From a phage: a DNA stretch of 64,000 nt. A program made the translations under genes and the position numbers. The notes beneath the pieces are model-generated. The model had not been told where the DNA came from and made no database searches. It was given only the letters and a program-made list of their open reading frames with translations. This document shows, in pieces, positions 5,060 to 56,367 of the stretch (the stretch's first letter is position 1; every line of letters starts with the position of its first letter). The DNA is taken from assembly GCA_027262695.1 (NCBI GenBank), contig GCA_027262695.1_4722.1; one strand, given 5' to 3'.

Positions 5060-7095
5060 AACGTGATTACATCCTCCGGTTTAGGTTCTTTACGCGGTAG
5101 AAGCATGTAGTCGATCGGATGATCTGGCTTCATGGTTGGGATATAACTGTTCGGGTTTTGGAACGCATCCAGTTGCTCTTGGTGAGCGAACTTCATACTC
5201 AAGGAGCGCATGTTCATGTTCTTCTTGAAGGTACTGAAATAACGAGTCGTTCCCTGTTTCGGCATGCGGTAATCTTTCGTGTGTGGTGAACGAATCATAC
5301 TCGCGTAGAGAATAACGTCCAGATGCGATAGATTCATTCGTAAACGTTGCGCACACAGACGATGCCAATAATACAGTACGTTGGCTACTTCTTCTGGTGT
5401 CGCTTCATCTTCCGAAAGGAATCCTGCACTGAACGAACCTTTCCCGAATTTGAATTCACGTTCGATTTCTTTTGCGTATTCCATCATGTTTTTATGGATG
5501 AGTGGCATCTGGAATAGCGTCCGTGAATTGTCCCAATGTTTCAAGTCGAAGATCACAATCCCGTCTGCTGTTACTTCCCAGCTATGGCGTTTGAGATAAC
5601 GGATAAACGCTTTGCTTGGTACAACAGGACGTCCACAGAAATCGAAATTGACTTTGAGTTTACGGTAGCTCTCATCTTTCCTGTCGTAAATCTCCATATC
5701 GCAAAGCGTCATGTTGAACAGACGTTGCGGGATAAGCGAACTGATCTCTTCCGCTTCAGCTACATCGTACAACATGTTCGCCAGACCGAGTTTCATCTTA
5801 ATCAGCACGTGTTTGCCTTTCAGCTCACGGGCTAATTTGATGTCGTTCATGTTCTGGCTGTAACGAAGGATATGTTGATATTCCGGCGGGATTGGTGACG
5901 TAGACACGGTGGACGAACCATCGTGATGTTTGGTCGAAAGAATGTTCTGGGTAACCTGTTGTGAACCTGTACGTGCTGAGCAGTCTCCGATGTTGTCGGT
6001 CAATGCAAAGTTATGGCTTAATTCACCATAGCACGTTGTACAGACACCAGCAGGATCAGAATGATGACAGTAACAAACGGAACGCATGTTCACAATGGTA
6101 CCGATCAATTCTTTCATGTGAGGCTGTATCGACAACAGCGAACCATCTTCACGTAAGATGAATCGACCGTGGAAACCTTTAAGATCGGTTTCATCACGTA
6201 TCGGCATCGGAATGGTTTCTCTGCTTCCACAGTCACCAGGGTGCAGACGCTGTACAACCGCCGTTGCGATTTGCAGCTCACGTCCGAAATATTCTGACTT
6301 CTTAATCTGCTCCTTGTTGAACAACAATGATTTTGCCGCAGAGCGACTTTCTTTCAAACTGTCTGGAAGCGAGATCAAGCCTGCTGCATACGACCGCATC
6401 ACTGGGTCACGGAAGATCTCCGAGTTGATATCGGTTAAGAAGCCACGCATCCCAATACACTGCAATACCTGTCCGATCGATACGTGTTCGGTTCTTACCG
6501 CACGTGCGATAGGGTTGGCATGCAATGTTTTATCGGTACTTAAAACTTTTGTTAGTTTCTTGTATGCGCTCTCAATACCTTCGCGGGTGGGTTCCGCTTC
6601 AGCGATGATTTTCTTCACTTCGGGATGTACGGTAATCTGATAAAAATCATCCGCACAGATGGTCGTTACGTATTCCTCCAACGCATACGTAAAGAAGTTA
6701 TAAACGTGGTTAAACATATCGAACAACGCTTTCCAGAGAACCTCACGATTCTCTTGCGGATACGCATACATGCATTGACGATAGGCTGCGCTTTGTAATG
6801 CAACGGAAGAACCTGCCGTAAACTTGCGTTTATCCACCAGGTTCTCTTTCGTTAACGGTGTCTCAGGATACATGCGATGTAAAGACCAATGCATGTAGCT
6901 AAAGAAAATGCGTCGCGCACGCAATTCATGAACACCATCGTCCATCTCGATATACACACGGTCATTAGGCTGTGCCCACTCGAACACCTCATCAACCGGC
7001 CAATGCATAAGCTCTCGCGCCCGTACACGGCGTTTCGTGGTGATCGTCTGTACTGTATTCATTATTTTTACTTTCCGATTAAGTGGTTTTATCAT
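5056..7095 (-). CDS. Multisubunit RNA polymerase beta-prime subunit, C-terminal fragment
   Basis: 'GMRG' (cf. E. coli beta-prime QLAGMRGLM); zinc-site-like 'RSVCYCHHSDPAGVCTTCYG' (cf. RSVVSCDTDFGVCAHCYG); trigger-loop-like 'GDCSARTGSQQVTQNILSTKHHDG'. Alternative start at Met12 (7060-7062). Confidence 0.7.
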   Translation of the reverse strand: MIKPLNRKVKIMNTVQTITTKRRVRARELMHWPVDEVFEWAQPNDRVYIEMDDGVHELRARRIFFSYMHWSLHRMYPETPLTKENLVDKRKFTAGSSVALQSAAYRQCMYAYPQENREVLWKALFDMFNHVYNFFTYALEEYVTTICADDFYQITVHPEVKKIIAEAEPTREGIESAYKKLTKVLSTDKTLHANPIARAVRTEHVSIGQVLQCIGMRGFLTDINSEIFRDPVMRSYAAGLISLPDSLKESRSAAKSLLFNKEQIKKSEYFGRELQIATAVVQRLHPGDCGSRETIPMPIRDETDLKGFHGRFILREDGSLLSIQPHMKELIGTIVNMRSVCYCHHSDPAGVCTTCYGELSHNFALTDNIGDCSARTGSQQVTQNILSTKHHDGSSTVSTSPIPPEYQHILRYSQNMNDIKLARELKGKHVLIKMKLGLANMLYDVAEAEEISSLIPQRLFNMTLCDMEIYDRKDESYRKLKVNFDFCGRPVVPSKAFIRYLKRHSWEVTADGIVIFDLKHWDNSRTLFQMPLIHKNMMEYAKEIEREFKFGKGSFSAGFLSEDEATPEEVANVLYYWHRLCAQRLRMNLSHLDVILYASMIRSPHTKDYRMPKQGTTRYFSTFKKNMNMRSLSMKFAHQEQLDAFQNPNSYIPTMKPDHPIDYMLLPRKEPKPEDVITL

Positions 7096-7170
7096 ACAGT
7101 GTATTCATTCCGTTGGAATTTACTCCGGGAGTCCCTTCCCTTAGGTTATATAGGTGTTAATATATCTCGG

Positions 7171-8660: not shown

Positions 8661-9098
8661 TCAGAAAGGAGTACGGTTCTTATATTCGAATAGTGTCTGG
8701 AGGACGCATCGCGTTAACGCGTTTTGTAATTCGATACGTCCTTGTTCCCCTAACAGATCCAACACCATCATCCCTTTTGCTGTTTTCTCTGCCACTTCTT
8801 CACAAATCCGTAAATTGTACACATCATCGTCGTCAAGCTCCTTACGACGGTCAGAGCTGAAACGCATCAGCTCACCTTGACTATCACGAACATCAGCGAA
8901 TGCTTCATAGGCTGCATCAATGTTCGCAGAACGCGTCAAACCCTCCGCTTCGCGCCATTCTCGGTATGTACCATCAAGCGTTTGTTCCTCGCCTGAGGTT
9001 GTTGATTCACTGTTGGTGGTTGGGCGAATTAAATGGGGTGTTATCATCGCTATTACGCTATCGTAATGCTCCATCGTATACCTCGTTAGCTTTCGCAA
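8661..9098 (-). CDS. hypothetical protein (145 aa)
   Basis: ORF on the dominant strand; overlaps the upstream gene end by 13 nt. Confidence 0.5.
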   Translation of the reverse strand: MRKLTRYTMEHYDSVIAMITPHLIRPTTNSESTTSGEEQTLDGTYREWREAEGLTRSANIDAAYEAFADVRDSQGELMRFSSDRRKELDDDDVYNLRICEEVAEKTAKGMMVLDLLGEQGRIELQNALTRCVLQTLFEYKNRTPF

Positions 9099-11254
9099 TC
9101 ATCAGCATCGATGATCTGACCACCAGCAACGTTCAACTGATGATACAGAATCCTCAACGCACGGTTACCCCCAATGGGATACTTCTCGAAGTTGGTCGCA
9201 ATCGGAATCGCAGAGGGTTTGTCGGTTGCATAGATGCTTTCCGTGATGCTATCCACCTGTTTCGGGTTGTTCGCGTAATCCATGAATACGCTTGCGAACC
9301 ATCCACCGGCAAAGGCGGTGACTTCGCGATGCTCGGATTCACCACAATAACGTGTCGGTTGCTCTTTACCCGGCGAACTGTACTTATCACTGTTGCTGAG
9401 TTTCGACGGCAAACCGTGTGCTTGCAGTTTAGGAATACCCACCGCAGACCAATCGTTCGCTGTCTTCTCCAACATCATGATGTATGTATCACCAATCGCA
9501 ATATCGTTCTTGGTGGTTCGCCATTGGCCAGAACGTCCACGATAGCGTACTGGACCTTTCTTCAACGGGAACTCTCGGATTAGGTTCTCCATACGTTCCG
9601 AACCTGCTGCGATACTGTCTGTCGGAATATAGACTTCCGTACCGTGGCGTTGTACGTAACGGAGATGATCCCATTTATCTTCGTCTGTGATACAGTGCTT
9701 CTCAACAACCTGTTCCACAAACTCAGGACTAACAATATAGTAGTAACGCATCAATGTGTTCCATGCGGTTTCCAGATCGCCTGCATCCATTACTGGTTTC
9801 AGTTCACGCATAATCTGATCACCAACACCGTTGATATAAGGTGCGTTAACACGGCTTAAACTCATCCTTTTAATTACCGTGCTGTCGTCGAACATAAAGT
9901 CCGCGACATTCCCCCATTGGTCTACGGGCATCTCGTCATCTTCCATGATATCCGTTACGACGAATTTATCACCTGCCATACCGGTAAATTTAAATCCGAT
10001 ACCCGGGACTACATCGTAGGTATACGTGATAGTCACACGCCAGTCGTCAAGATTCTCCTTACGGTAATCACGGGTTGGCAACACATGACGTAGCTGACCG
10101 TTCGGATTGCGAATATCGATACCGTGCTCAGCATCAGCGAGGTTCAACCACCACATCACCGTCTGATGATGTCTGATGGGTGTACCAGCACGTTCACGTT
10201 CGTATTTACGCACCGCATCCTGAATACGGGTATACAGCAGACCGATGGCGTTCTCATATTTCAGGAATTGACGATACGGCGGACGCATCTTCTCTTCCAT
10301 CATAATCGCACGCTCACGGGCTTGACGTCCAGAACGACGATGGCGATCACTAACCACATCGATATCCGTCACACGCGCATTCGGTTCTGCGTAGGTAAGG
10401 TCATCGTAAACGTAGTCGACACGCTGCAGGTTGCAGGTCATCATGTCGACGACGCTCAGAATCGGATCGATTTCACGGGTTGCTGCTAACAGACCATCTT
10501 TACGAATACGTTCACCGTTCTCCGGGATTGCCTGATAGACCTCATCGTCGCCGTAGAGATTAATCGGATACCTCGACTTACCTGACGTGATCGTCCGTTT
10601 CTCGATACCGGTACTGGTGAAGTGTTTCAGTACGCCACGACGGGCAACACCCCCATCCTCAATACATTGATAGAAACTCCCAAAACACACCTTGCAATCA
10701 CGTCCGTAGCCCCACTCACGCGTTTCTTGATTGATCGCCGGGCTTTCCATCAAACGAGAGTATCGAGGTACGATCTGGCCTCGACGAAGGGAATGGAACA
10801 AATTGGTGGGTCGAAAACGGAAACCGTACTGCTGATGCATGATGTGATGCTCGGGCACTTCAAGCAAGCGCAGCTCATGGCGGTTACCATCTTCTTGGTT
10901 TTCATACAGCACGTAATGCATCGTGTTTGTCTTGATGCTATTCGCGGTATGCCCAGGTTGAAAACGTGGGATGATATCTATGACGCGAGATTCAACGGGG
11001 AATTCTACCGACCATGTATTCTGACCATACTGGTATTCAATCCCCGTCGTTAATCGGGACGGCTTCGCATCTTTGATAACCAACGCTTGGCTAAGATGTC
11101 CACCAAACATCGCAGCGCGCTGTGCTGAGTTATAATGCAATAGCCCGTTAAGTCCAGTCCCTACACCCGTATACTCCTGTTTAATGGGAATGATTTTACC
11201 TTCAGCGATTGCCTGCTTCACAGATTCATAAAGAGGTTTTTCTTTATAATGCAT
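9086..11254 (-). CDS. Multisubunit RNA polymerase beta subunit, C-terminal fragment
   Basis: 'NSAQRAAMFGGHLSQALV' (cf. [16 protein letters not shown]), 'KFTGMAGDKFVVTDIMEDDEMPVDQWGNVADFMFD' (cf. [36 protein letters not shown]), 'RYCGESEHREVTAFAGG' (cf. RFGEMEVWALEAYGA). Start trimmed to the ATG at 11252-11254, preceded by a GGAAG RBS; the track start at 11419 would overlap a divergent plus-strand gene. Confidence 0.7.
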   Translation of the reverse strand: MHYKEKPLYESVKQAIAEGKIIPIKQEYTGVGTGLNGLLHYNSAQRAAMFGGHLSQALVIKDAKPSRLTTGIEYQYGQNTWSVEFPVESRVIDIIPRFQPGHTANSIKTNTMHYVLYENQEDGNRHELRLLEVPEHHIMHQQYGFRFRPTNLFHSLRRGQIVPRYSRLMESPAINQETREWGYGRDCKVCFGSFYQCIEDGGVARRGVLKHFTSTGIEKRTITSGKSRYPINLYGDDEVYQAIPENGERIRKDGLLAATREIDPILSVVDMMTCNLQRVDYVYDDLTYAEPNARVTDIDVVSDRHRRSGRQARERAIMMEEKMRPPYRQFLKYENAIGLLYTRIQDAVRKYERERAGTPIRHHQTVMWWLNLADAEHGIDIRNPNGQLRHVLPTRDYRKENLDDWRVTITYTYDVVPGIGFKFTGMAGDKFVVTDIMEDDEMPVDQWGNVADFMFDDSTVIKRMSLSRVNAPYINGVGDQIMRELKPVMDAGDLETAWNTLMRYYYIVSPEFVEQVVEKHCITDEDKWDHLRYVQRHGTEVYIPTDSIAAGSERMENLIREFPLKKGPVRYRGRSGQWRTTKNDIAIGDTYIMMLEKTANDWSAVGIPKLQAHGLPSKLSNSDKYSSPGKEQPTRYCGESEHREVTAFAGGWFASVFMDYANNPKQVDSITESIYATDKPSAIPIATNFEKYPIGGNRALRILYHQLNVAGGQIIDADDCES

Positions 11255-11285
11255 AGGACTTCCTATTATCGAATTGAGGTACGTC

Positions 11286-11639
11286 ATGTCTAATACGCCC
11301 CTGAACGACTTCCTTAAAACAAACCCAGAAGACCTCATCCACAACCTTGATTTCAGGAACGTTGTTGAGATGCATCTGGAATATTTCAAAAATGCCGGTT
11401 TGGTTTCTACGATAGACATACCACCCGAACGCGCCTACGAATTCGATGGTAACTTTTATGGATTATGTCGGGTTATGCTTGGCGAAGGCAGTGAACCTAT
11501 GCACTGGGTTACCCTAAGAATCAACGGTTATCGTGATCCTACGGAATACACCGCCGATGTCCTAACGATGAAGATTGTCGATTCAAGCGCCATCAACACG
11601 TTAAAACAGCAATATCGCACAATCCACTACAGCGCTTAA
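11286..11639 (+). CDS. hypothetical protein (117 aa)
   Basis: Plus-strand ORF with a GAGGT RBS and its own downstream hairpin terminator at 11645-11673; divergent from the RNAP beta gene. Confidence 0.45.
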   Translation: MSNTPLNDFLKTNPEDLIHNLDFRNVVEMHLEYFKNAGLVSTIDIPPERAYEFDGNFYGLCRVMLGEGSEPMHWVTLRINGYRDPTEYTADVLTMKIVDSSAINTLKQQYRTIHYSA

Positions 11640-11705: not shown

Positions 11706-12986
11706 TCAGAAGCGATTGACGGGACGACCTGTCCACGCGTTCAGGATAGTGTTACGTTCCATCTCAGCGCGACGACGCAGCCCGTTCGGCGTCTGCGGTG
11801 CTGGTGGCATCCCCCATCCTGCAGGTTGCGCACCCATGCCTGGCCAAGCCCCAGTATTGAACATCGTACCGTTACGTTCCGCTACACGGTTCATCAGCAT
11901 ATCGAACGTACTATTACCTCCTGGTTGGTTAGCACCTCCTTCCCACGGATTAGGTTGAACCGGCGCGGTCTTACCTAACAGGTTATCGATGACATTACCT
12001 GATGCAGTAGGACGTGGTTGCATACCTTCATGTGCGGCGGCTGATGGATTTGGCTTAACCGTAGGTTGCGGTCGACTGTTGAGCGTTACACCCATGTTGT
12101 ATTTCGCTGGAGGAATCTGTCCGCGATGCTGATTAATCGGTTCAAAGTCCTCAACCCAGGTAACGTCGCAATACCCATTCTCTTTACCGTCGTACTTATC
12201 ACCAAACAGTTTGATGAGGTTATTCAACGGCTCCATCAGCTTAGCGAAGCTGTGGATAAGGCAATCGAAATACGGTGCATGCGGATCGCTTGACCCAGCG
12301 TTATACGTTTCACTGACTTCGCTTGCGTGCGGGATAACATACTCAACCAGGTTTCTCAGCATGTTAAGATCTTTCTTGGAGATCTCAACACCACACCAGT
12401 ACGTTTTCTTATCTTTCGTGCTGATGTGTTCTTCTTCCATGAACGGGAAAGTAACAACGGCAACACGGGTCATCTTCTTACCCATGTAGGTTGCACCAGT
12501 ACGACGAAGATAGATTTTAGACAGCGTATACGGTGTATCACGTTTCAGCCAAACGGTAACCAGTTTACCCAGGGTCGTTAACGTCTTATCGCTGGCGTCC
12601 GCAAGGATGTTGAAGAACTCTTTCTGCTTCGGACCGAAACGTTTTGCTTCTTTCGGGTTGATCGCGGTTTCAACCATCCAAATCAGCATGGAGCACAGCG
12701 TAGCGTTAAAACGGACAACCATCGCACGACGCAGGAACTGCAGCACTTCCGATTCGCCGTTCATCACGTCTTCACTTAACGGATGGAACAGCACACGTTC
12801 GGCAAGATGGCTTCCTGTACGCACTTCGGTAACCGGCATCAGCAACGGCATGCTTTCCACGGTAGCGGCAACTGCAACAACCTTACCATCACCATCTGTA
12901 AAGCGGTACTCTAACTCATGAGCATCGTTTTCAAAATAGTTAACGCTTTGTAGCGCTTTACGATAAGCTTCAATAAGCTTCGACAT
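11706..12986 (-). CDS. hypothetical protein (426 aa) with a Pro/Gly/Asn-rich low-complexity C-terminus
   Basis: Long ORF; C-terminal about 100 aa are compositionally biased. Confidence 0.55.
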   Translation of the reverse strand: MSKLIEAYRKALQSVNYFENDAHELEYRFTDGDGKVVAVAATVESMPLLMPVTEVRTGSHLAERVLFHPLSEDVMNGESEVLQFLRRAMVVRFNATLCSMLIWMVETAINPKEAKRFGPKQKEFFNILADASDKTLTTLGKLVTVWLKRDTPYTLSKIYLRRTGATYMGKKMTRVAVVTFPFMEEEHISTKDKKTYWCGVEISKKDLNMLRNLVEYVIPHASEVSETYNAGSSDPHAPYFDCLIHSFAKLMEPLNNLIKLFGDKYDGKENGYCDVTWVEDFEPINQHRGQIPPAKYNMGVTLNSRPQPTVKPNPSAAAHEGMQPRPTASGNVIDNLLGKTAPVQPNPWEGGANQPGGNSTFDMLMNRVAERNGTMFNTGAWPGMGAQPAGWGMPPAPQTPNGLRRRAEMERNTILNAWTGRPVNRF

Positions 12987-13041: not shown

Positions 13042-14628
13042 TTAGAAGTTGCCTTTGGTGGTTACAGCATCAACCAGGTTGAACAAATCGATGCTCAGCT
13101 TATACACTTCCTGCTGGCTACGGTTGAGCAGCGGGCTATAAGCAGAAGGGTTGATGTTCGGCATGGTGTATGGAATCGGGGCAGAGCCATCAACGCTGAT
13201 CTTGAACTGGCTATCCAGGAACAGGTTAATTGCGCCACTTACCATAACCGCATTCGGGTTGTTCCCTAACATCGACGGTAAGATGTTGATGATCATATCG
13301 GAACGCATCTGCTCAGCAGCGCGGTTACAGTCGTAGCCTTTAATGAACGGTACCGCATCGGTAACCGCAACCGCCCACTGACCTGGCATGATACCCAGCT
13401 CTGGGTGACCGTGGTTGTCCGCAATGAAACGGAACGATTCCAGCATGCGGTACGTCATCGCCGCAGGCATCATGGACGCCAGCGAGGAGCAATAGATCGT
13501 TGGATAATCGATCACATCCCAGCTTTGGCTATCCGTTGGCATCCAACCGAATTCGGTGGTTGCTGATGTACCGCGACGGGCTTCCACATACGGGAACAGC
13601 GTCAGGACATCACGGATATGTTCACCGAAATGCCGTTTCATTTCACCCCAGCTCAGGCTACCGTTAAACGAAAAGCCCTCATCACGCATGATCTCATTGA
13701 ACATCGTGTGCGCAACCAGCGGTTGTTCACGGACGTATTGAGAAGCCTCAACGTAAACATCCTCGTTGTTGGCCTCGCCGGGATGAGAACCTAGCTCGAA
13801 GGTCTGACGAACGGTGCCCACGCTATCGAACGCTTTCTTCAGATAGATGGTTGGGATATTTGTATCGATGCTGGCGGGTTTTACCTTCTCTGTTGCAAAA
13901 CACAGCGCAGCATCCATCCCACGAACAACCGGTTCCTGTTGTGGTCGGTATGTTGAGTGGTTCACGACGTCCGCATACATCGGGTCGAACTGTTGCATCA
14001 CGTTCTGCATCGAAGGATCCATGAACTGATTGTCCATACCACCATTACCGAGCCAACGTGCAGTCGATGCGTAGGTCAGCGTATCCTGCACACGGGTACT
14101 GAACTGAACGTCGTTGTTCATTGGGTCATACGCCCCGGTAAGCAGATGGATAGCATCTTGAGGAGCTGCACGTACAACCTGTTTACCGAACATATCAACG
14201 GTGGTTGTTTCCAGCACGATAATGACGTTGGTGAAGAAGAACTGCAATTCGTTCGGCAGATCCTGTACGCGGGTTGTGTATGCATCCAACGGAACAGAAT
14301 AATCGGTGTATCCAGACACGTAATGAACACGTTTGCTTCCTGGAGCTAACGCAACCGATTCTTCTGCTGCCATCATGAAATGGAAACGACGGGTACCCCA
14401 ACCATTAGCAATCTCTGAAACCCCTTCCGGCTGTGCGGTTTGCTCTAACATCCCGGCAGCCAGTTTATTGATCGCTGATGGTGTTGTCGCGGTGCCGAAT
14501 CGCGTTGTGTTAATAAACTCTTCCAGGCTATGCATGCTGTCAGCGTGGAACTGAATTGGACGACGGTGCACATTGTTGTATGGTGCGGTTTCAACCATCA
14601 GGATTTCACGAACATTCATCGATACCAT
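13042..14628 (-). CDS. hypothetical protein (528 aa)
   Basis: Long ORF; start lies 1 nt from the stop of the upstream gene (coupled). Confidence 0.55.
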   Translation of the reverse strand: MVSMNVREILMVETAPYNNVHRRPIQFHADSMHSLEEFINTTRFGTATTPSAINKLAAGMLEQTAQPEGVSEIANGWGTRRFHFMMAAEESVALAPGSKRVHYVSGYTDYSVPLDAYTTRVQDLPNELQFFFTNVIIVLETTTVDMFGKQVVRAAPQDAIHLLTGAYDPMNNDVQFSTRVQDTLTYASTARWLGNGGMDNQFMDPSMQNVMQQFDPMYADVVNHSTYRPQQEPVVRGMDAALCFATEKVKPASIDTNIPTIYLKKAFDSVGTVRQTFELGSHPGEANNEDVYVEASQYVREQPLVAHTMFNEIMRDEGFSFNGSLSWGEMKRHFGEHIRDVLTLFPYVEARRGTSATTEFGWMPTDSQSWDVIDYPTIYCSSLASMMPAAMTYRMLESFRFIADNHGHPELGIMPGQWAVAVTDAVPFIKGYDCNRAAEQMRSDMIINILPSMLGNNPNAVMVSGAINLFLDSQFKISVDGSAPIPYTMPNINPSAYSPLLNRSQQEVYKLSIDLFNLVDAVTTKGNF

Positions 14629-14629
14629 T

Positions 14630-16216
14630 TTATTTTTTTCCTCTTAAATTTACTACATGTTCATTTAATCGAACAACTAATTGCACAAGCTGCTGACGGA
14701 TATCTGCTGGGCAAAGCATCAATCCTTTACGATCAGCGGGGACTTTCTCAAGGATTTCAGGGCCTGCTGCTGAAACATCCCAATCCCATTCACAAAACGC
14801 ATCGGCTACCATGTTAATACCGACAACCGGTAAAGTTGTACGTTCATCTTCATACATGGCATGCGGATACAATTTATTGACGGTAATAATCTCCTGTGGT
14901 TTTAATTGGTGGATAATCTGATAAACATCATCACGTTTAACCTGGATGCCTACGGTTAATGCGGCCAGTTGAGGGAAACCCCAATGGTCTAACAAGCATG
15001 CCGCAATCGCTAACGCTTTTGCCTGATGCACGGCTTCAATCGGTGCCAGACTTCTCGCCGGAAGATGGCTGTCCAACAACCATTGCGCCAGTGCTCGGCA
15101 TCCGCGATTGATCGGTTTTAACTCAACGGTATCATCATGCTTCGCGTAAGTGTATCCATCGTAACGTTTTGCGATACGCGCATACATGTCTTCAACCTTA
15201 CCGTACGGTGCGGTTTCATCAACGTCGTGTAACACCCGTTCCATCTGGGTAAGATAAGCGATATCAAGAATGAGTACACGTGGTGAACGTTTATCTTTCA
15301 CCATCAGCGCATCAATCACACCTTGGCTATCTTCATCTTGCGCATTCCCTCGCGGAGTTTTCTCACGTATGGGTCCGCTGAAACGACGTTCCGTACAGAG
15401 GTTATTCACATAACTGAAAATCAGCGTCACCAGATGCGTACAACTGACCAACACCCCATCTTTAACGACGGGCTGCACGGCTTGGTCCAAATCACGTACC
15501 GCAAGGCGTCTGACGATGGCTTGCGAACGCAACCAACCCGGCACTTTTTCTGTTGACATGTAATCCACGGTCATCGACAACGTGATCTTTTTATCGCCTG
15601 TCTGTGCACGGATATAGTCTTCCAGTCGGTCATAAGCTGCGATATCATGAATGCGTGTTTTATACATCAGCGACATCGCCACTTCTTCTTTACGTACTGT
15701 CCCGTACGTTTTCCCCGCATCAATCAGGAACTCAGCCCAGATAGGCACCATCAAACGAACGTAAATCGCTAACGCGGTTAACTCAACATAATCGTTTCGT
15801 AAATAGGTTTTCTCTGGGATATCATCCTCGCCTAATGTCGTTTTCATGTCTGGCGGTAATTTTACCCAACCTGGGGTATTACACAACGCCAGAATCTCTT
15901 CGTATACAACGGGTTTGTAGATTTCGCCAACGGCGCGACTCAGCTCCTCCATTTGTTGTTGCGGTGCAATGTAATTATCCATCGCTTCACGTGCTTTAAC
16001 GAACCCTTCAAAGATATCATCGGTTCGACGTGGGTTCTTTTGCTCTATCCAGGCAAGATACTTGTTAATCTCTCGCATCTGATTGCTGGCCATATCCCCA
16101 TCGATCTTGATATAACCTTGGCCTGAAAATTCCACGGTCCGTCCATCACGATGTTTGATAAGATAATGGTCTAGCTTTTCTTTGCCTTGCGTCGTAATGA
16201 CGGGCACAATGTGCAT
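14630..16216 (-). CDS. hypothetical protein (528 aa)
   Basis: Long ORF with an AAAAGAGG RBS and the conserved 11-mer about 50 nt upstream. Confidence 0.55.
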   Translation of the reverse strand: MHIVPVITTQGKEKLDHYLIKHRDGRTVEFSGQGYIKIDGDMASNQMREINKYLAWIEQKNPRRTDDIFEGFVKAREAMDNYIAPQQQMEELSRAVGEIYKPVVYEEILALCNTPGWVKLPPDMKTTLGEDDIPEKTYLRNDYVELTALAIYVRLMVPIWAEFLIDAGKTYGTVRKEEVAMSLMYKTRIHDIAAYDRLEDYIRAQTGDKKITLSMTVDYMSTEKVPGWLRSQAIVRRLAVRDLDQAVQPVVKDGVLVSCTHLVTLIFSYVNNLCTERRFSGPIREKTPRGNAQDEDSQGVIDALMVKDKRSPRVLILDIAYLTQMERVLHDVDETAPYGKVEDMYARIAKRYDGYTYAKHDDTVELKPINRGCRALAQWLLDSHLPARSLAPIEAVHQAKALAIAACLLDHWGFPQLAALTVGIQVKRDDVYQIIHQLKPQEIITVNKLYPHAMYEDERTTLPVVGINMVADAFCEWDWDVSAAGPEILEKVPADRKGLMLCPADIRQQLVQLVVRLNEHVVNLRGKK

Positions 16217-16269
16217 AACAACCTCTTTTCGCGGTTCCCTGTTAAACGTTTTCTATAACGCCATCAAGG

Positions 16270-16280
16270 AGGTAATATAA
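16270..16280 (-). promoter_or_regulatory. Candidate phage promoter element TTATATTACCT (minus-strand sense)
   Basis: Identical 11-mer also at 27417-27427, in both cases 50-70 nt upstream of a minus-strand start codon. Confidence 0.35.
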
Positions 16281-16418
16281 GCGTGAATAATTTTGGATTC
16301 CTGCTGAGTCATCGCTCAGCATGCAAGGCATCCCGCCGAAGCGAGACACCTTGCACTAACGGAAAATACTCGCGTTACCTTCTGAATCGAAGACCCAGAA
16401 TGCGATACTAAAGCATCA

Positions 16419-17207
16419 TTAGAATGCTAAGCCATCAAAGGCGATTGACGGATCATCATCGTCATTTGCGCTAGGCGCGTCCCAACGCGTGTCAGGGGCT
16501 GCTGGAGCCGAACTTGAGGCATTAGAGTTACCGTTGTACTGGCCGTTACCAGCATTACGGTTACCGCCACCGTTGTTATTGTTACGATTGTAGCTGTTGT
16601 TACCATTACTTACGCTACGGCTTTCACCGTCAAAGTTGGTTGCGAGGATGCTTGGTAACACCGCACGATGAATACGTACGAATTCCAGCGCACAAAGCGG
16701 AGAAACAACACCGATCTGCAAAGGTTGTCCAGACTCATCAACCAAAGCGTGGAAACGCGGTGGTTTGAACACGAATTGGATGTTCGGTTTTTGGTATGCG
16801 GTTACCGCGATGTACACCGAACCATCGTCATTCTTACCGACCCACGTTGTGCTCTCGGTAATCTGCTTTTTCTTACCTGGGTTATTGCGATCATCGATAA
16901 CCTTTTCGTTCTTCATCGCAAAGCGTTGACCAGGTTTACCCTTAGCAACCTGCTCAAGGATCGCCAGTAGGTTATAGAACGCGTATGAACTCATGCGTGC
17001 CCAAATGCTTTCAGCACGACCCTGTTGGTCTTTACGTCCTGTATAAACCGTAATACGTGGTTGATTTTTAGCGACGCTAATTTTCAATGATGGAATTGAA
17101 TTACCGCCCTCAACCTTCTCGTCCGCCCACAGTTTCCAGTTGTTGTCGTCATAAGCCGTAGGAATGATATTTCCTTGTGGTTTACTGCCCGAATTCCAAT
17201 TGCTCAT
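16419..17207 (-). CDS. putative ssDNA-binding-like protein with Gly/Asn-rich linker and acidic C-terminal tail
   Basis: Globular N-terminal about 190 aa, then 'NGNNSYNRNNNNGGGNRNAGNGQYNGNSNASSS' and a C-terminal 'NDDDDPSIAFDGLAF'. The architecture resembles bacterial SSB; this is inference from architecture, not from an OB-fold alignment. Confidence 0.3.
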   Translation of the reverse strand: MSNWNSGSKPQGNIIPTAYDDNNWKLWADEKVEGGNSIPSLKISVAKNQPRITVYTGRKDQQGRAESIWARMSSYAFYNLLAILEQVAKGKPGQRFAMKNEKVIDDRNNPGKKKQITESTTWVGKNDDGSVYIAVTAYQKPNIQFVFKPPRFHALVDESGQPLQIGVVSPLCALEFVRIHRAVLPSILATNFDGESRSVSNGNNSYNRNNNNGGGNRNAGNGQYNGNSNASSSAPAAPDTRWDAPSANDDDDPSIAFDGLAF

Positions 17208-18081: not shown

Positions 18082-19227
18082 TTATAGCGGTAACGTATCA
18101 AGCCATGCAGAAACCTTCAGGGCATCAACGTTCGGATATTTATTGCGTACACGTTCAACCAATAAACGCTTCACGTTGTCTTTTGTCAAGTCTCCACCTT
18201 TCTCGATAACATTGTTAACAAAACTGTTCTTTAATAACGATTGGTTATTTTTGGCATCGGTTTTAATCGACCAAATGAAACCTGGGTATAAAGCAGGAAT
18301 AGAACGGAACGTTTTCGCTGCATCATCTTCCTTATCGCAACGGATTCGGATATGATCCCCTTTTTTCAATGAAGCAAGTTCCCGTTCCAAAACCCGTACG
18401 ATTTCATCGCCAACAAGACCATGCAATTTTATCGTCTTGTAGACATCGGCTTTCTTGTTCTCAACGAACTCCCATTGGTCATTGAACGATTCGGTTAATG
18501 CGTATCGAAGATAACCTTTCGGACCTTCTTCTCCATGCGCAAGACGTCCGAACGAACCTCCCACCATGATACGCCCTTTCTGCGACTGTAAGTGAATATG
18601 TCCACTTACAATCCATCCTTGCGTTTTCTCCACCATCGCATTATACGCATCGCTACTATGCACACACGTTGCTTTTAACGCTTCTGGTGGTAGCTGATAT
18701 TCAAACGCACCATGCATCAGAATAAAGTCAGGTGATCCTTTCTCGTCAATGAGTTTGTTCACTGCTGCTAACGTGACGTCTGGGTCATGGCTGTAGTTAT
18801 CAGGAAGATAAAGCACTTTCAACCCGAAGTCTTCATCGACCATGCAGAGATCGTCATAGTAACGAACTTTCGCACCGATTTCCATGACTTCATTCTGTTC
18901 CACAAACCACTGGCTTTGCTTCTGATCGTGTAAGTTGGTGCCCTCAAGAAAGATCAACGTAATATCGTGTTTTCTTGCGTATCTTAACAGCCAGGTACCC
19001 CAGGCACGAACAGCAACCACATCGCTTGTTACAAAGGTCGTAATACGGTCGAAGACATCACCACTGAATGTAATCACGTCGAGTAACGCCGGGTCCTCTT
19101 TCGTGATGTAATAACGCAGCTGGCTAATCAGGTTTACCGTTGGCGTTTGACGATGGATAAAATGAATATCCGATAAATTGATTCCTCGTAATACCCCAGG
19201 CGTTTTATTTCGGCTGAAGTCTCGCAT
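18082..19227 (-). CDS. Mre11/SbcD-like metallophosphoesterase nuclease
   Basis: Calcineurin-like phosphoesterase motifs in canonical order: 'LSDIHF', 'GDVFDR', 'GTNLHD', 'MHGAFE', 'GHIH'. Confidence 0.65.
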   Translation of the reverse strand: MRDFSRNKTPGVLRGINLSDIHFIHRQTPTVNLISQLRYYITKEDPALLDVITFSGDVFDRITTFVTSDVVAVRAWGTWLLRYARKHDITLIFLEGTNLHDQKQSQWFVEQNEVMEIGAKVRYYDDLCMVDEDFGLKVLYLPDNYSHDPDVTLAAVNKLIDEKGSPDFILMHGAFEYQLPPEALKATCVHSSDAYNAMVEKTQGWIVSGHIHLQSQKGRIMVGGSFGRLAHGEEGPKGYLRYALTESFNDQWEFVENKKADVYKTIKLHGLVGDEIVRVLERELASLKKGDHIRIRCDKEDDAAKTFRSIPALYPGFIWSIKTDAKNNQSLLKNSFVNNVIEKGGDLTKDNVKRLLVERVRNKYPNVDALKVSAWLDTLPL

Positions 19228-21446: not shown

Positions 21447-21573
21447 TTTACTATCCTCGGATTTATTAGGATTTGATTTCCAATATAAGGACAACGCCTT
21501 ATACAGTCGATTGATGTTGTACATCGCATCTGTGATGTATCACAGAAGTAATATAGCCGTGAAAATTATTGTA

Positions 21574-22413
21574 TTAACGTGTTCTCCTGTCACGATGGGT
21601 ATATGACTGTAATCCGATGTCCATATGCGGTAACGTCAATGTTTGCCAGATCTGTTGTGCGTAGCGATCGAGTGTATAGTCGTTGGTAACGCAGTCAACC
21701 GGTTCAATGAGATGCGTCGTGTATTGACTTTTCTCTGAAAACGGATCAACGTTAGCAGTATCTCCTAGTCCGCTTTTCACCGTGAAAACAAGACGAGTAA
21801 CCACCATCGCTTTACGTTGTTGCTCGTTATAACGAAGGCCACGATAAATCGCATAGCTCGCGCCTTTCAGGCTTCGGGTATAACGAAGGTCAGACGTCGT
21901 CCCGCCAATTTGATGCAACATCCAGTCTAATGTATCCCGCCAGTATTTATCATCCGTGTCAGGTACCTCGATACCGTAACGGGTAGGAAGCAGATCCAAA
22001 AGCAGTTTGTAGAGTCCACGACGCAAACCGTGTTCTTCTGTTTCTGATAATGTGTTTCCTCCAACATAACGAGAAATACGTGTTCGTAAATACGCACGAA
22101 TAAACATGCACGTCATTACTGTTTTCGAGTGGCTGGTGATGTCTTCAAAAGTATCAACACTGAAACTCGTTTCGATCAATCGTCCGTTAAAGTACAATGC
22201 AGCTACATACATCGCGCTACTGCTGTCTCGGTCGATGTTCAAACGACCGCAGATATTGGCTGCGTCGTTCATGGTAAATTCGAGTTTGTCGTGTTCAATA
22301 TGGTAGATAATATCTTCTTGGGTTGCCAGGCTCGCAATACGACGATAGCCTGGAGTAGTACGTTTAACGCTCATAATGGTCCTCGATTTCAATTTTAGGA
22401 TTACAGACGGCAT
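21574..22413 (-). CDS. hypothetical protein (279 aa)
   Basis: ORF on the dominant strand. Confidence 0.5.
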   Translation of the reverse strand: MPSVILKLKSRTIMSVKRTTPGYRRIASLATQEDIIYHIEHDKLEFTMNDAANICGRLNIDRDSSSAMYVAALYFNGRLIETSFSVDTFEDITSHSKTVMTCMFIRAYLRTRISRYVGGNTLSETEEHGLRRGLYKLLLDLLPTRYGIEVPDTDDKYWRDTLDWMLHQIGGTTSDLRYTRSLKGASYAIYRGLRYNEQQRKAMVVTRLVFTVKSGLGDTANVDPFSEKSQYTTHLIEPVDCVTNDYTLDRYAQQIWQTLTLPHMDIGLQSYTHRDRRTR

Positions 22414-23356: not shown

Positions 23357-24248
23357 CTGTTTGTCGACTATATCTTCATCTTCATTGCGAAGAGACTCTC
23401 GTTTGGGTTTGTGTTTAACAAAGCCTACTCTACTCAACATCGCGTCTTTCGATAGTCTGTGAGCACACATCTTAACGAATATTCGTGGGTTCCTACAGAC
23501 AGGTGAATATTCTTGTTGAGATGCTTCGCTGCGGATTATTCCCGTCCTACCTCTTTTACCATACCCAGTTCATTACGCTGGCCCTCATCGATGTCACCAT
23601 GATGAGTTGGTGTGTAGTCCGATTACAGAAACTTCCCGTCAATTAGAGAGTTTTAACTATGCTCCTGTTACCAGGAACCAGATCCCGACGGTATCAATAA
23701 ATCAACGTAAGTTATTGATTTAATTGAAAAAACTGAAATCTGCATTATCTTAATCTTCGATATGGTTCGCTAAGCCATATCCGCACATACGTGCAGCTTA
23801 CGTCTTTCACGTAAGAAGAGACTATATCTTTCACCCTCAGCTTTACCTGTTAGGGGCTCCCATTTCGGCGGTCGTTTGACCGGTGGTTTCCCACGCCGCT
23901 TGGCCCTAACGCCCGTGAGCGATAGTCGTTGAGCACATCTCCGTTCTGGAGACTTCGCTGCGGATTCCTCAATCCTTACTGCTTTTACCGTACCTGAATG
24001 ATTAGTTCAGCCCCACGCTCTGTTCCCAGGCATGGTTGGTGAGCAAGGCTCTAAGTAGGTTCCCGCTATTAGAGAGTTCCTCGTGACAGCATTACTGTGT
24101 CACTGGGCCTAATGACCCTTTCAAGATCATCACGCTTAACCCGATGGTGTTATCCTGCGGGTCGCGTTTAACCTTGGTGATTTCAAGACATTGGTTACTG
24201 CTACGGTCAAGTGATGGATTTCGAACAAAGCCACACACAATCCCATCG
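23357..24248 (-). ncRNA. Two tandem ORF-less group I intron cores inside the beta-prime N-terminal gene (boundaries approximate)
   Basis: Minus-strand elements for core 1: P AATAGCGGGAA (24060-24070), Q AATCCGCAGC (23957-23966), R GCTCAACGACTATC (23921-23934), S AAGATATAGTC (23820-23830). Core 2: P AATTGACGGGAAG (23632-23644), Q AATCCGCAGC (23528-23537), R GCTCACAGACTATC (23451-23464), S AAGATATAGTC (23366-23376). Stops in all frames; no ORF over 70 aa. Confidence 0.65.
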
Positions 24249-25357
24249 AACGGTGTATCAGCAATAAGCTCGTCATGCAGCTCGCTCATCATCGGATGAT
24301 AATTGCGGACATGCTCTGCAACGAACGCACGGGCTGCTCTTGGTGAATAACCACGATGGAATAACTTGGATTGGATATGTTCTTTATTGGTTAGTGTAAA
24401 TGGTGCGTACGGAAAATGCAGATGATAATAACGATGGTTTGCTGTTATCGAACTGATGACCGTACGTGTGGTGAATGGATGTAATGTACCTAATATGTTC
24501 TTACGTGTGATCCCTTTCTTCTTACCAATGAACTCATCGAAAATCGCCGAGTGATACTGCAACAGCTTCAATTGCACTTTCGCCATCCAGTTTTCTTTCT
24601 TTCTGGCGCTTAGTGGCGTGGTTGGATGATAGATGCTATTCAATGTTCCGATGGCGTCTATCGCACCTTCCATTTTGCTGTCAGCGTAACGTCCTGTTGG
24701 CGTGTTCTCGATCACGAACATCATGGCTGCAGGAAAGCTGATGTACTGACTGAAGAATTTATCCCGATGAATACGGATGAATTCGCGTAGCGTATCAACC
24801 TTCTCCATGTTCTTCGGTCCACGTAGTGTGGGTCCTTTATACAAGATCTCCATGATACGATCGAAGTTCTGTATAAAGCTATTTATACCGCGTCGTATTC
24901 CGAATACATCGAATTGCTGTTCCAGATAGTTCTTAAGTTCGATCGGTCGTTTTACGTTCGGACGGTAACTGGCATCAATGAGCCACGTCATCGTTTCAAA
25001 GCTTTTGATATTCAACTCGCTTGCCAGCACGAGATGGACCAACGGGTTAATGAACGCATCGATACCTTCCGGTACGCGCGCCCAGACCGTTGAACGAATC
25101 TCTTGTTCTGCTGGATAAGTGACAACCGTTTTACAGTTCGGGCACACCGTCCCTAATAACTCACCGCGATTATAGAAACCACAACCGCATTGCGGGGTGA
25201 TATCCAAGGTATCGCTCGAGTAAACACGGGTGATGAAACTGTTTAATTTCTTCTTCTCTTCCACGACCTTCGTATCATAATCGTTCAACAATATCGGCGT
25301 AAAAGGAAGTTCTGCGAGCTGTCTATCGAAACTGACGATATCGAGCATGATGGCCAT
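24249..25357 (-). CDS. RNAP beta-prime N-terminal subunit, upstream exon (3' boundary approximate)
   Basis: Zinc ribbon 'CGCGFYNRGELLGTVCPNC' matches the spacing of E. coli beta-prime 'CLCGKYKRLKHRGVICEKC'; 'HPMMSELHDELIAD' resembles 'HPLVCAAYNAD'. The ORF reads on into the intron ('TPFDGIVCG...') to a stop at 24092. Confidence 0.6.
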
Positions 25358-25449: not shown

Positions 25450-27348
25450 TTAGAACAGGTTGAATGCCCCGCCCATGCCGTTACCGCCCACATTCGGACG
25501 ATCGTTACGTGCGTAGATGTTGCCGCTGATGGTACCCAGACCGCGAGCACGTGCTGCCATGTTACCACGAACAGCGGTGCCTGCCAGATGCTGGATGTTC
25601 TCAGGACGGATGGTGAAGCCTGCTTCAGCAGCCGCTTCAATCAGTGCCTGCAACGCCAGCGGATCGAAATCATAACGCATCGCCCAGCCGGTTTGTTCCC
25701 AGCTACCAGACAGAACGCGGTCGATGATTTCGTGACGAGCAACCACACGCTGAGACATCGACATATCGGTACGGTCGAAGCTGTCTTCCCAAGCTTCTAC
25801 GGTATCCGGGTTGGTGATGTTCATCATGTACAGATCGTCCATATCACGAATATCGTGACGGTTACCGTCCTGGTGGTTGTAGTGACCCAGCGGGATACGG
25901 TTACCGGTCGCGTAGACCAGCGGTGAGCCGTACGGATATTTCTTGCTGAAGCAACCCAGGGTAACATCATCGAACGCACGGAAGAGGGCTTTGTAGCCTT
26001 CGGAGTATTCCTGTACGTCCCCTTCAACATTACCCGAGAAGATCTTCTCAGCCGCCGGGATCATACGCAGCAGCCAGCTGTACTCGCCTTCTTCTGGTAC
26101 ATCGATAGAGATCAGCAGAGACGGATACAGAACCTGTTGCAGGAACTTGTAAATCTGCTCGTTGGTTTGCGTAGACAGATCCAGCGGTGCAGTCACTTCA
26201 GGATCCAGCACCATCGCCAGAGCACCTGGGTTATGCGGACCAATACCACGAGCCGCGTTGCTGATTAAAGACTGTGCCCATGCCATGCCGCTGTTCAGCG
26301 TAGCGATGGTACCAATCAGACCCAGCACGAAGCTGTTCGGCGTGAACGCATCCAGTTCCAGCGGATACATGCTGGTCATTACGTAGCGCGGCTGGTACTG
26401 AACAGTTGGCGGTACCGGATAACCGTTAACCAGAACAGGACCTTGCTGGAAGGTCGGGTTCTGCGGGCTGTAGGTCAGATCGATATAACCGGTGGATGCA
26501 ACCAGACGCTGCTGGCTATCGTAATCGCCCATCGCTTGACGGATGCGGTTAGAGATAGTTACAGTAATGTCGGAGCGTACCGGGTTACCCGCGATATCAC
26601 TGTCCTGCATGCCGCTGGTGTTATACTGAACGCTGCTGATCGGCTGGTCGCTTGCCATCATACCCAGGTTGAACTGAGGCAGGCCCAGTCTGTCAGCAAA
26701 ACGCATTTCGGTTGCCGTCTGGATCGCGTTATCTGCTGCAGACAGCAGGGTGGTTGCCAGATGCGCAGATTCAGCAGTGATTTCATTGGTCACAACAGCC
26801 AGACCAGCGATACGTACCGTACCGTTGGCTTTACCACCGATAGCCGCATACATCGCTGCCATGACTTCGTTGATGAACGTGCCGTTCAGGTTATCCACCC
26901 AAGTACATGGTACCAGGATGTTACCGTGAGGACCACGTTCTTCACGACGTGGCAGCGGAGCCAGGCCAGCAACCAGCGGAAGGACGTAACCGAAGAAGTG
27001 GTTATGATCGCCCACTTTTACACCGCTCATCACAACCAGGGTCGGATACGGTACGCTGTACTGGTTCGGGTCAACCGCAACAAAGATGAAGTCGTCTTTG
27101 AACTGGGTATCTTCCAGATATTTCTCCATCAGACGACGGAGATTCAGTACCTGCTCGGAGCCGGTATTACGGCTGATACGACGGCTCAGTGTACGGTTGA
27201 TCGTACGCATCGTATGAGTTACTTTAGGACGGTCAGCAAAATCTGCAGCGGTTTCGACCGCTTCGTTAGCGCGCTGCGCCGCGCGGGTTTCAGCTACGCG
27301 GATGTCTACGTTATCGTTACCGTTATTGTTACGTACGTCTAAGCCCAT
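25450..27348 (-). CDS. chmA: candidate chimallin (phage nucleus shell protein) / abundant 632 aa protein
   Basis: The 632 aa size matches known chimallins; the gene lies immediately upstream of the beta-prime N-terminal gene (the gp54-gp55 arrangement of phiKZ as I recall it) and within about 8 kb of PhuZ. It has an AAGAGGA RBS and the conserved 11-mer upstream. No alignment was performed. Confidence 0.45.
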   Translation of the reverse strand: MGLDVRNNNGNDNVDIRVAETRAAQRANEAVETAADFADRPKVTHTMRTINRTLSRRISRNTGSEQVLNLRRLMEKYLEDTQFKDDFIFVAVDPNQYSVPYPTLVVMSGVKVGDHNHFFGYVLPLVAGLAPLPRREERGPHGNILVPCTWVDNLNGTFINEVMAAMYAAIGGKANGTVRIAGLAVVTNEITAESAHLATTLLSAADNAIQTATEMRFADRLGLPQFNLGMMASDQPISSVQYNTSGMQDSDIAGNPVRSDITVTISNRIRQAMGDYDSQQRLVASTGYIDLTYSPQNPTFQQGPVLVNGYPVPPTVQYQPRYVMTSMYPLELDAFTPNSFVLGLIGTIATLNSGMAWAQSLISNAARGIGPHNPGALAMVLDPEVTAPLDLSTQTNEQIYKFLQQVLYPSLLISIDVPEEGEYSWLLRMIPAAEKIFSGNVEGDVQEYSEGYKALFRAFDDVTLGCFSKKYPYGSPLVYATGNRIPLGHYNHQDGNRHDIRDMDDLYMMNITNPDTVEAWEDSFDRTDMSMSQRVVARHEIIDRVLSGSWEQTGWAMRYDFDPLALQALIEAAAEAGFTIRPENIQHLAGTAVRGNMAARARGLGTISGNIYARNDRPNVGGNGMGGAFNLF

Positions 27349-27416
27349 TTGGGAATCCTCTTTTTCTTAACTTTTAAATGACGTCATTGAATCAGCTTTT
27401 TCTCGCTCATTCACCT

Positions 27417-27427
27417 AGGTAATATAA
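27417..27427 (-). promoter_or_regulatory. Candidate phage promoter element TTATATTACCT (minus-strand sense)
   Basis: About 70 nt upstream of the 632 aa gene start at 27348, inside a 238 bp AT-rich divergent intergenic region; identical 11-mer at 16270-16280. Confidence 0.35.
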
Positions 27428-27586
27428 CCCTGAAATTTTTTTCAATATTGGTGTAACCGTATTGAACGATATAAACCCCCAGGTGAATGCTGCCGAGAAG
27501 CAACATTCTATCTACATATAATCAGGATATGTCTGTAAACTTTTACTTCTCGTCATATCCGTTTACTATCTTCTTACGGAGTTCGT

Positions 27587-40892: not shown

Positions 40893-41476
40893 GGGACATA
40901 AACCTCCATCAACATCGCATAAAGCGCACCAAGCCCGTGTAGGACTCGGTTAGGGGCAAAGGTAGGTGTATAGCAGACTTGTTCAGTGGGCGCTTGCTGA
41001 CGCAGATCGAGAGGATCCCCGTTGATAAGCATTTGCAGAAGGTCGGTGTCGTCCTGTAAGGTATCTTCATCGATATATGCATCAACACAGAGCAGTCGAT
41101 GTAACTGTTCGGGTTTAATTGAAATGCCGACAACCATGCAGTTGTTGTAGGTCGCGTTGTCCAGAAAGAAGTGAATAACCCCTGCCTGCGGATCGCCGCT
41201 GTAATGTAGCCATTGAGTAAAACCCGCCGACATCATCCACAACGGGTTATGTTGCAATGCGCCGACAACACGGGTTTCGAATTCCAAACCGAACTTCTGG
41301 AAGATCGCGCCCATCTGGAAACGATCTTCATCCAAACGGTAACGGAAGATACAGGCATCAGAGCCTGTTGAGTTATCATACACCGAAAGATACCCACGAT
41401 GGATTTCCACGGTAACGTTGTTATCATTAAGCGTAGCGCTTGCGACGCCGTTAGCAAAGGTTGGTACAAAGCTCAT
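40877..41476 (-). CDS. hypothetical protein (199 aa)
   Basis: ORF on the dominant strand. Confidence 0.5.
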   Translation of the reverse strand: MSFVPTFANGVASATLNDNNVTVEIHRGYLSVYDNSTGSDACIFRYRLDEDRFQMGAIFQKFGLEFETRVVGALQHNPLWMMSAGFTQWLHYSGDPQAGVIHFFLDNATYNNCMVVGISIKPEQLHRLLCVDAYIDEDTLQDDTDLLQMLINGDPLDLRQQAPTEQVCYTPTFAPNRVLHGLGALYAMLMEVYVPCFKN

Positions 41477-42051: not shown

Positions 42052-42135
42052 GAAGGTAATGTAGGTTTATTTTAATCTCCATTTCGCGATGATATGACAG
42101 TCTTTATTACGTTTACCATCTGAGGGAGCATGCTC

Positions 42136-56232: not shown

Positions 56233-56367
56233 GTTAATACTCCAATTAGTTTTTCGATCGATCAAAAGGATAAAATCAGAAGATTCATTTCTTCATAGGG
56301 AAAACACAAGTCGGTTAAGGTTTACTTCTCAAACTCCTTGCGTTCTATCAGTTAGGTAATATAGACC

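Follow-up and report, generated by a model that had tools for sequence, protein, structure and literature searches.

The analysed stretch, which we call the window, comprises 64,000 nucleotides of phage DNA. Its closest match is Escherichia phage vB_EcoM_Goslar, to which it is colinear and 87% identical at the nucleotide level over 14 kb (megablast), and its sequence marks it as a relative of this nucleus-forming jumbo phage of the Chimalliviridae. Two more Goslar-like genomes are present in IMG/VR (UViG_3300011560_000001 and UViG_3300045988_173921), both of which differ from the window. About 7.6% of the window is intergenic. Besides nvRNAP subunits, it encodes part of a large subunit of the vRNAP type, and a block of its genes is colinear with phiKZ gp65-gp75. 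The genes that matter for the analysis are the following:

2798-5059: helicase (gp65-gp75-colinear block)
5056-7095: nvRNAP beta'-C (same block)
9086-11419: nvRNAP beta (same block)
11706-12986: gp70-like gene (same block)
13042-14628, minus strand: homolog of phiKZ gp69 (Imp1/PicA, nuclear import factor; BLASTP E = 1e-15)
14630-16216, minus strand: 528-aa gene, homolog of phiKZ gp68 (BLASTP 24% identity, full length, E = 4e-34)
16419-17207, minus strand: ChmC homolog (Goslar gp176 by position, phiKZ gp67)
18082-19227: SbcD-like gene (same block)
24092-25357, minus strand: nvRNAP beta'-N, homolog of phiKZ gp55 (BLASTP 31% identity, E = 2e-67; phrog_2987)
25450-27348, minus strand: chimallin (ChmA, nuclear shell protein), 632 aa, 94% identical to Goslar gp246
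61551-62651 and 63149-63976: large RNAP subunit in two exons, ~1,424 aa (phrog_3148; Goslar gp207 by position)

The gp68 protein is the fifth, sigma-like, promoter-specificity subunit of the phiKZ nvRNAP (PMC13282480), Goslar gp176 is ChmC (PMC11077065), and the imp1/orf69 naming follows 10.1101/2025.11.23.690004. We infer that the gp207-like protein is a subunit of the virion RNAP (vRNAP), through which the genome would encode a multisubunit virion polymerase; the only vRNAP subunit named in the Goslar work is gp196 (10.1101/2023.09.20.558163).

In the original prediction, an 11-mer shared by two minus-strand sites was singled out as a candidate phage promoter that could mark early transcription by a virion RNAP. 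Its description of the repeat is accurate: an exact-match search finds TTATATTACCT exactly twice in the window, at 16270-16280 and 27417-27427 and in the minus-strand sense at both, and the claimed 50-70 nt to the start codons were measured as 54 nt (ATG 16216) and 69 nt (ATG 27348), counted from the 11-mer's 3' end to the first base of the start codon, each ATG being preceded by a good Shine-Dalgarno sequence (AAGAGG). The second gene, put forward as a chimallin candidate, has its 94% identical counterpart in the protein annotated as 'nuclear shell protein' in Goslar. Where the prediction fell short was in extent: two is the correct count of the exact 11-mer, but the strong copies of the motif number four, and although the 11-mer is part of a real signal, the unit that appears to function spans ~40 bp rather than 11.

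A chance repeat in AT-rich intergenic DNA, devoid of function, could account for the 11-mer taken by itself, as 1,886 distinct 11-mers are found two or more times in the window; significance of the repeat as such was rejected on this ground and, the repeat alone being uninformative, the case for the motif rests on its context. The raw count of the exact 8-nt core, TATATTAC, likewise shows no over-representation (4 copies vs 2.4 expected). Against chance, however, all four copies of the core lie on the minus strand and in intergenic DNA, directly upstream of minus-strand genes and co-oriented with them, and an unbiased scan of the window returns TATATTAC as the top intergenic-enriched 8-mer (4/4, P = 3e-5). 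When at most one mismatch is allowed, the 11-mer has 4 matches vs 0.77 expected, a number that none of 100 shuffles reaches. The P1 and P2 sites agree at 30 of 50 positions, and a pattern of ~40 bp, tAaTncAAaAnntTTCAcGgc-TATATTAC-yTAngTGA, is common to all four sites, which are listed here together with two doubtful variants:

16260-16309, minus strand: motif site P1, core TATATTAC at 16272-16279, first site of the original prediction; 31.3 bits (independent matrix), 27.8 bits (short matrix)
27407-27456, minus strand: motif site P2, upstream of chimallin, core at 27419-27426, second site of the original prediction; 55.1 bits, and 40.0 bits with the short matrix
21536-21585, minus strand: motif site P3, core at 21548-21555, missed by the original prediction; 52.3 bits, and 45.7 bits with the independent matrix
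56344-56393, minus strand: motif site P4 (CTATATTACCT), core at 56356-56363, also missed; 48.4 bits
7145-7152, minus strand: doubtful variant TATATAAC, upstream of the nvRNAP beta'-C gene; 14.7 bits
42056-42063, minus strand: doubtful variant AAACCTACATTACC, upstream of ORF 41473-42051; 13.1 bits

With an independent weight matrix, trained only on the eight Goslar sites without an ortholog in the window, the four sites score 30.6-45.7 bits, against a mean of 4.0 and a maximum of 15.3 for the best hit in 100 random windows. That the motif exceeds random frequency thus holds for its placement and its matrix scores, both far above random, but not for the count of the exact core, which is near chance. 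Placement and matrix tests together rule out a chance repeat, which is left with practically no probability also by the position upstream of chimallin, kept in nine genera (see below).

The complete Goslar genome (237 kb) was assembled for a motif scan. The core is TATATTAC in eight of its sites and TACATTAC in the other four, the flanking context being shared by all 12, and from these the consensus tAaTncAAaAnntTTCAcGgc-TA[T/C]ATTAC-yTAngTGA is obtained. Scores are bimodal with the short weight matrix, the 12 sites lying at 32-43 bits and the next best at 13.9, and the best score in random sequence of Goslar length has a mean of 11.7 and a maximum of 17.0 bits. Every one of the 12 sites is on the minus strand and 11 are intergenic by annotation, the twelfth overlapping the start of a 62-aa hypothetical ORF. 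At orthologous positions of the TACATTAC sites, the IMG/VR relatives carry TATATTAC, so that the two cores look interchangeable. P1 has orthologous sites in Goslar (at 160791) and in UViG_3300011560, the ortholog of P4 is the Goslar site at 201944, upstream of gp214, and P2 is the same in all four Goslar-like genomes compared. Footprinting inside this genus does not make the motif distinct, the whole chimallin upstream region being 92% identical among four genomes. The variants at 7145-7152 and 42056-42063 are left as doubtful because their scores fall within the random range of a Goslar-length sequence, despite their conservation and right placement: the former is a conserved island in the Goslar alignment with a diverging upstream flank, and the latter is conserved in Goslar and resembles the EL consensus WTTTYAAACCTACATTATY (PMC7058600). 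Many single pattern matches in short IMG/VR contigs were dismissed as coincidental, having one unrelated flank in common and no flanking promoter elements.

The likeness to the early promoter motif of phiKZ, pointed out in the original prediction, extends to identity in the core, as Table 2 of PMC7058600 gives precisely TATATTAC for phiKZ. The same table holds predicted early promoters for 201phi2-1 (TTAWTAVAA_HYWTTTRARR_BTATATTACDWHDGTG), OBP (...WWWWWTTTYARRYAKATATTATYWWADTG), EL (WTTTYAAACCTACATTATY) and N1M2 (a related string). A motif of this kind can be identified ahead of the presumed early operons of every RNAP-encoding jumbo phage and equals the early-promoter consensus wherever transcripts have been profiled; it has its centre near -10, and the virion RNAP 'must' be the enzyme that recognises it (PMC7598289). 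Early promoters of 201phi2-1 determined by ONT-cappable-seq are conserved at -10, -20 and -30 (PMC11512511). What characterises early promoters of the Chimalliviridae is found in the window as well: an AT-rich core of ~8-10 nt, TATATTAC at 4/4 sites; elements near -20 (TTTsAsR) and -30 (A/T-rich), contained in tAaTncAAaAnntTTCAcGgc upstream of the core and in keeping with the 201phi2-1 and OBP strings; and multiple co-oriented, strand-biased copies in intergenic DNA (4/4 sites in the window, 11/12 in Goslar).

The accounts of the phiKZ early promoters drawn on here (Ceyssens 2014 as cited; Wicke 2021, PMC8244752) give 28-32 sites and a consensus made of the AT-rich TATATTAC and a T-rich element upstream of -19. 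With these the window sites share the identical 8-nt core, the A/T-rich tract and TTTsAsr upstream of it, the strand bias and the genes served (gp54/chimallin and gp68), but they differ in coming from another genus with another host (E. coli, ~47% GC), in the -20 element (TTTCAsG here, TTTGAGA in phiKZ), in the stronger conservation of the downstream yTAnGTGA, and in copy number, Goslar having only 12 per 237 kb, with transcription start sites (TSS) that are predicted rather than experimental. The string tAaTncAAaAnntTTCAcGgcTATATTACyTAngTGA aligns with the 201phi2-1 consensus in all four blocks, and the Goslar variant TACATTAC matches the EL consensus CCTACATTATY. OBP and N1M2 have ATATTAT where the window has TATATTAC, and copy numbers differ from that of Goslar in N1M2 (31) and in 201phi2-1 (6 mapped and more predicted).

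Other phages bring their own polymerase as well. In coliphage N4, too, an injected virion polymerase transcribes the early genes, but the N4 vRNAP is a single-subunit giant polymerase recognising DNA hairpin promoters, and the motif described here contains no hairpin. Phages of the AR9/PBS1 type likewise inject a multisubunit vRNAP and have a ~10-nt AT-rich element centred near -10 (PMC7598289), but the sequence of this element differs, and by their descriptions these phages are set apart by having uracil DNA and no nucleus.

The motif also keeps its place across chimalliviruses. We compared the chimallin loci of phages from eight genera besides that of the window (phiKZ, PhiPA3, RAY, Eowyn, RTH11, Noxifer, RP12 and SA002), whose chimallins are only ~22-29% identical to the window's. 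The gene order of a divergent gene, chimallin and nvRNAP beta' is kept in 8/8, and a matching motif, weakest in RTH11, precedes the annotated chimallin start by 64-150 nt in 8/8. In phiKZ, the copy upstream of gp54 (GAAAAAAATTTGAGATTTATATTACTAAATTGAAT) is nearly superimposable on that of the window (GAAAAAAATTTCAGGGTTATATTACCTAGGTGAAT), and by dRNA-seq it is the early motif that stands at the primary TSS of gp54, a middle motif standing at a secondary one (PMC8244752); the window site thereby has a positional ortholog among mapped early promoters. phiKZ gp68, to which the 528-aa gene is homologous, is likewise preceded by the motif, and in IMG/VR the sequence ...TTTTTTTCGGACAGATATTACTACATGG precedes a distant homolog of gp68. 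Hosts of the phages with the motif include Pseudomonas, Erwinia, Ralstonia, Salmonella and Klebsiella.

Sequence alone cannot separate a promoter from an operator that always stands beside one, and the motif could instead be bound by a phage or host DNA-binding protein, as a repressor or nucleoid-protein site or as a signal for packaging or replication. We consider this very improbable, as the motif has no dyad symmetry and a strict orientation to the downstream gene, lies at a fixed distance from the mapped starts of phiKZ and 201phi2-1, where it is centred at -10 (PMC7598289, PMC11512511, PMC8244752), and occupies the heads of operons, directly after terminator hairpins.

If the motif is a promoter, it could in principle serve any of three polymerases. 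The host enzyme comes to mind because, as in sigma-70 promoters, an AT-rich hexamer lies ~10 nt upstream of the start, here TATATT, 5/6 identical to TATAAT, and because the A-rich tract further upstream could play the part of an UP element. A scan of P1 and P2, however, found no pair of sigma-70 hexamers with 16-18 nt spacing at either site; on its upstream side, the core is separated from the conserved TTTCAsG by only 2 nt and from TTGAAA, in sites that have it, by only 13 nt. Extra conserved elements take the place of a -35 box, at -20 and at +1, and neither the conserved C after TATATTA nor the GTGA element has a sigma-70 counterpart. Infection of the phiKZ type is moreover rifampicin-resistant (PMC7598289, PMC13282480), the promoters of the model phages being independent of the host polymerase, and the same motif recurs in phages of very different hosts. 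Recognition by E. coli RNA polymerase through sigma-70 thus has only a slim chance of being the correct explanation.

Somewhat less improbable, though still unlikely, is that the motif is a genuine phage promoter of a middle or continuous class, used also or instead by the nvRNAP. The secondary, middle-motif TSS of phiKZ gp54 (PMC8244752), the continuously expressed classes of AR9 and PhiR1-37 (PMC7598289) and the need for chimallin throughout infection all speak for it. The published middle and late motifs are different, though, consisting of TACT or an AT-rich stretch near -22/-24 and of TATG at +1 (PMC7598289, PMC8244752), and the window motif fits the early consensus in all three elements (PMC7058600). 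Chimallin knockdown in Goslar further stalls infection at the vesicle stage with normal chmA, picA and chmC transcripts (10.1101/2023.09.20.558163), that is, these genes are transcribed normally in arrested vesicles where only the vRNAP is at work.

We therefore favour the reading, with high though not complete confidence, that the 11-mer is the most conserved part, a -10-like core with two flanking bases, of a ~40-bp early promoter for the vRNAP of a Goslar-like phage. The original proposal of an early promoter for a virion RNAP is in this respect supported by homology, recognition by the vRNAP and early timing in the window phage being extrapolated; the assignment to the vRNAP draws on the physiology of phiKZ, where the virion carries a multisubunit RNAP that is injected with the DNA and transcribes early genes, including those of nvRNAP subunits, with rifampicin resistance and with no need for host RNAP or new protein synthesis (PMC7598289, PMC13282480). 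In Goslar, the early infection (EPI) vesicle holds the injected DNA and, colocalised with it, GFP-tagged gp196, a vRNAP subunit (10.1101/2023.09.20.558163).

In the proposed layout, an A-rich tract lies around -30 and TTTCAsG around -20, TATATTAC would occupy about -14 to -7, and yTAnGTGA would extend across the start. If the core is set at these positions, with its centre at about -10, and the conserved G at -2 as in 201phi2-1, the predicted starts fall on the G of GTGA, which follows the C of the core by ~7 nt. P1 would accordingly be placed to start near G16265 (+/-3 nt), with a 5' UTR of ~49 nt to ATG 16216, and P2 near G27412, with ~64 nt to ATG 27348. For P3 the predicted start is near G21541, with ~95 nt to ATG 21446, which comparison with Goslar gp182 indicates is probably the true start codon of the first gene, and for P4 it is near G56349, with ~117 nt to ATG 56232, a start codon taken from the Goslar protein. 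A Goslar preprint gives a chmA 'TSS' sequence that begins 91 nt upstream of the ATG (10.1101/2023.09.20.558163); taken as a literal +1, it would put the start on the opposite side of the core, 11 nt upstream of it, but as 91 is given for a second gene too, we read it as a display convention and not as a mapped +1.

Three of these leader regions show peculiarities of their own. Just downstream of the P1 core, there are indels among three Goslar-like genomes, with TG kept at the same offset. At ~21526-21547 (minus strand), around the predicted +1 of P3, the window has a 16-nt insertion relative to Goslar that includes the palindrome CTGTGATACATCACAG and re-forms GTGA at the right spacing from the core. 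The predicted 5' UTR of P4 (56233-56349, minus strand) is near-invariant relative to Goslar, and in it an SD-like AAGGAG precedes a very short ORF.

In the course of infection, the multisubunit vRNAP would enter together with the DNA and, inside the vesicle, recognise these sites ahead of all phage protein synthesis and without host sigma factors, the four promoters of the window firing leftwards along the minus strand. The first and second genes downstream of P2 are those of chimallin and nvRNAP beta'-N, which this promoter would supply. P1, with the ChmC homolog as the last gene upstream of it, is followed by the gp68 homolog and then the gp69 homolog, and would drive the gp68-like nvRNAP specificity subunit, PicA/Imp1, the gp70 homolog and probably nvRNAP beta. 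P3 is at the head of a gene array that runs down to chmC and would be expressed from it, and P4 would serve three small genes. The motif would in this way start the two things needed first, the nuclear shell and the second polymerase for middle and late transcription, with the shell protein and the specificity subunit of that polymerase each under an early promoter of its own, as in phiKZ.

For the lineage as a whole, it is possible, though we would not wager on it, that Goslar-like phages run their entire first programme from about 12 near-identical vRNAP promoters on one strand. At 5 min after infection, 175/249 Goslar genes are detected (10.1101/2023.09.20.558163), for which twelve promoters seem few; such a programme would imply either very long transcripts that pass through phiKZ-type terminators or a second, unrecognised class of early starts. 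With chimallin promoters near-identical between phages whose chimallins are only ~24% identical, promoter recognition by the vRNAP would also rank among the most strongly conserved traits of the family, and such promoters might function in other genera.

That promoters of this class exist, are attributed to the virion polymerase and occur throughout the family is already established, and conceptually little is added here. Within the literature searched, no promoter analysis or early-promoter motif was found for Goslar: its RNA-seq preprint does not mention promoters (10.1101/2023.09.20.558163), and its public GenBank record annotates terminators and no promoters. The sites described here provide a concrete, testable promoter map for a lineage of nucleus-forming phages that infects E. 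coli, and the ~40-bp consensus could become a transferable element for early expression in engineered phages of the Goslar type, a use to which the consensus early promoter of phiKZ has already been put (10.1101/2025.11.23.690004).

A second recurrent element of the window is a GC-rich hairpin, often CCCTCCC...GGGAGGG, directly followed by T(T)TATGCCGT, of which there are six copies in the window and about 14 in Goslar. The 5' base of TATGCCG in the six copies is at the following positions:

7766, minus strand
11678, plus strand
22414, minus strand
30943, minus strand
35004, minus strand
57267, minus strand

The six hairpins, followed by TTATGCCGT, match the intrinsic terminator motif of phiKZ, BCCYCCCCHWWDGGGRRGGBYTTATKYYGT (PMC10914365), and judging from this match the phiKZ-type terminator is conserved in Goslar-like phages too. 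We had considered the hairpin with TTATGCCG as a late promoter, TATG being the late core, and rejected this reading on account of the same match. Only 2-5 T's follow the stem in these terminators, with no long T-run, and a search for canonical intrinsic terminators in two ~300-nt stretches at P1 and P2, neither of which holds a copy of the hairpin with TTATGCCG, found none. In promoters and terminators alike, the window appears to follow the grammar of phiKZ. Between the chmC stop codon and P1 there are strong hairpins at ~16300-16365 (minus strand; 141 nt, -56 kcal/mol, z = -5.3), namely a 16-bp hairpin with a UUCG loop and then a second hairpin, with no TTATGCCG tail; this fold may stabilise the 3' end of the abundant chmC mRNA or act as its alternative terminator.

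Beyond the Goslar-like phages, six IMG/VR contigs (L006, L011, L018, L021, L030 and L036; five of 214-228 kb and one 23-kb fragment) form a second clade of uncultivated jumbo phages. Their closely related promoter string, TTTAAGATACAnnnnTTTCAsGTCTATATTACTTGnGTGATTAAGAC, suggests the same early-promoter grammar in an undescribed lineage.

The large RNAP subunit gene of the window is split by a group I intron (Rfam RF00028, 51 bits) at 62787-63153 (minus strand), and the two ORFs on either side, 61551-62651 and 63149-63976, match phrog_3148 positions 1065-1422 and 778-1050, respectively. Goslar gp207 is annotated as a single unbroken CDS of 1,448 aa, with the annotated intron lying further upstream, so intron content differs between these close relatives. 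Two further group I intron matches in the window lie where it is ~1 kb shorter than Goslar and lacks gp186, the HNH endonuclease gene that goes with the intron there in Goslar. They are below the gathering score of 50, one just so (23357-23726, minus strand, 49.2 bits) and the other by more (23798-24135, minus strand, 26.9 bits), and both are located directly downstream of, or overlap, the end of the nvRNAP beta'-N gene.
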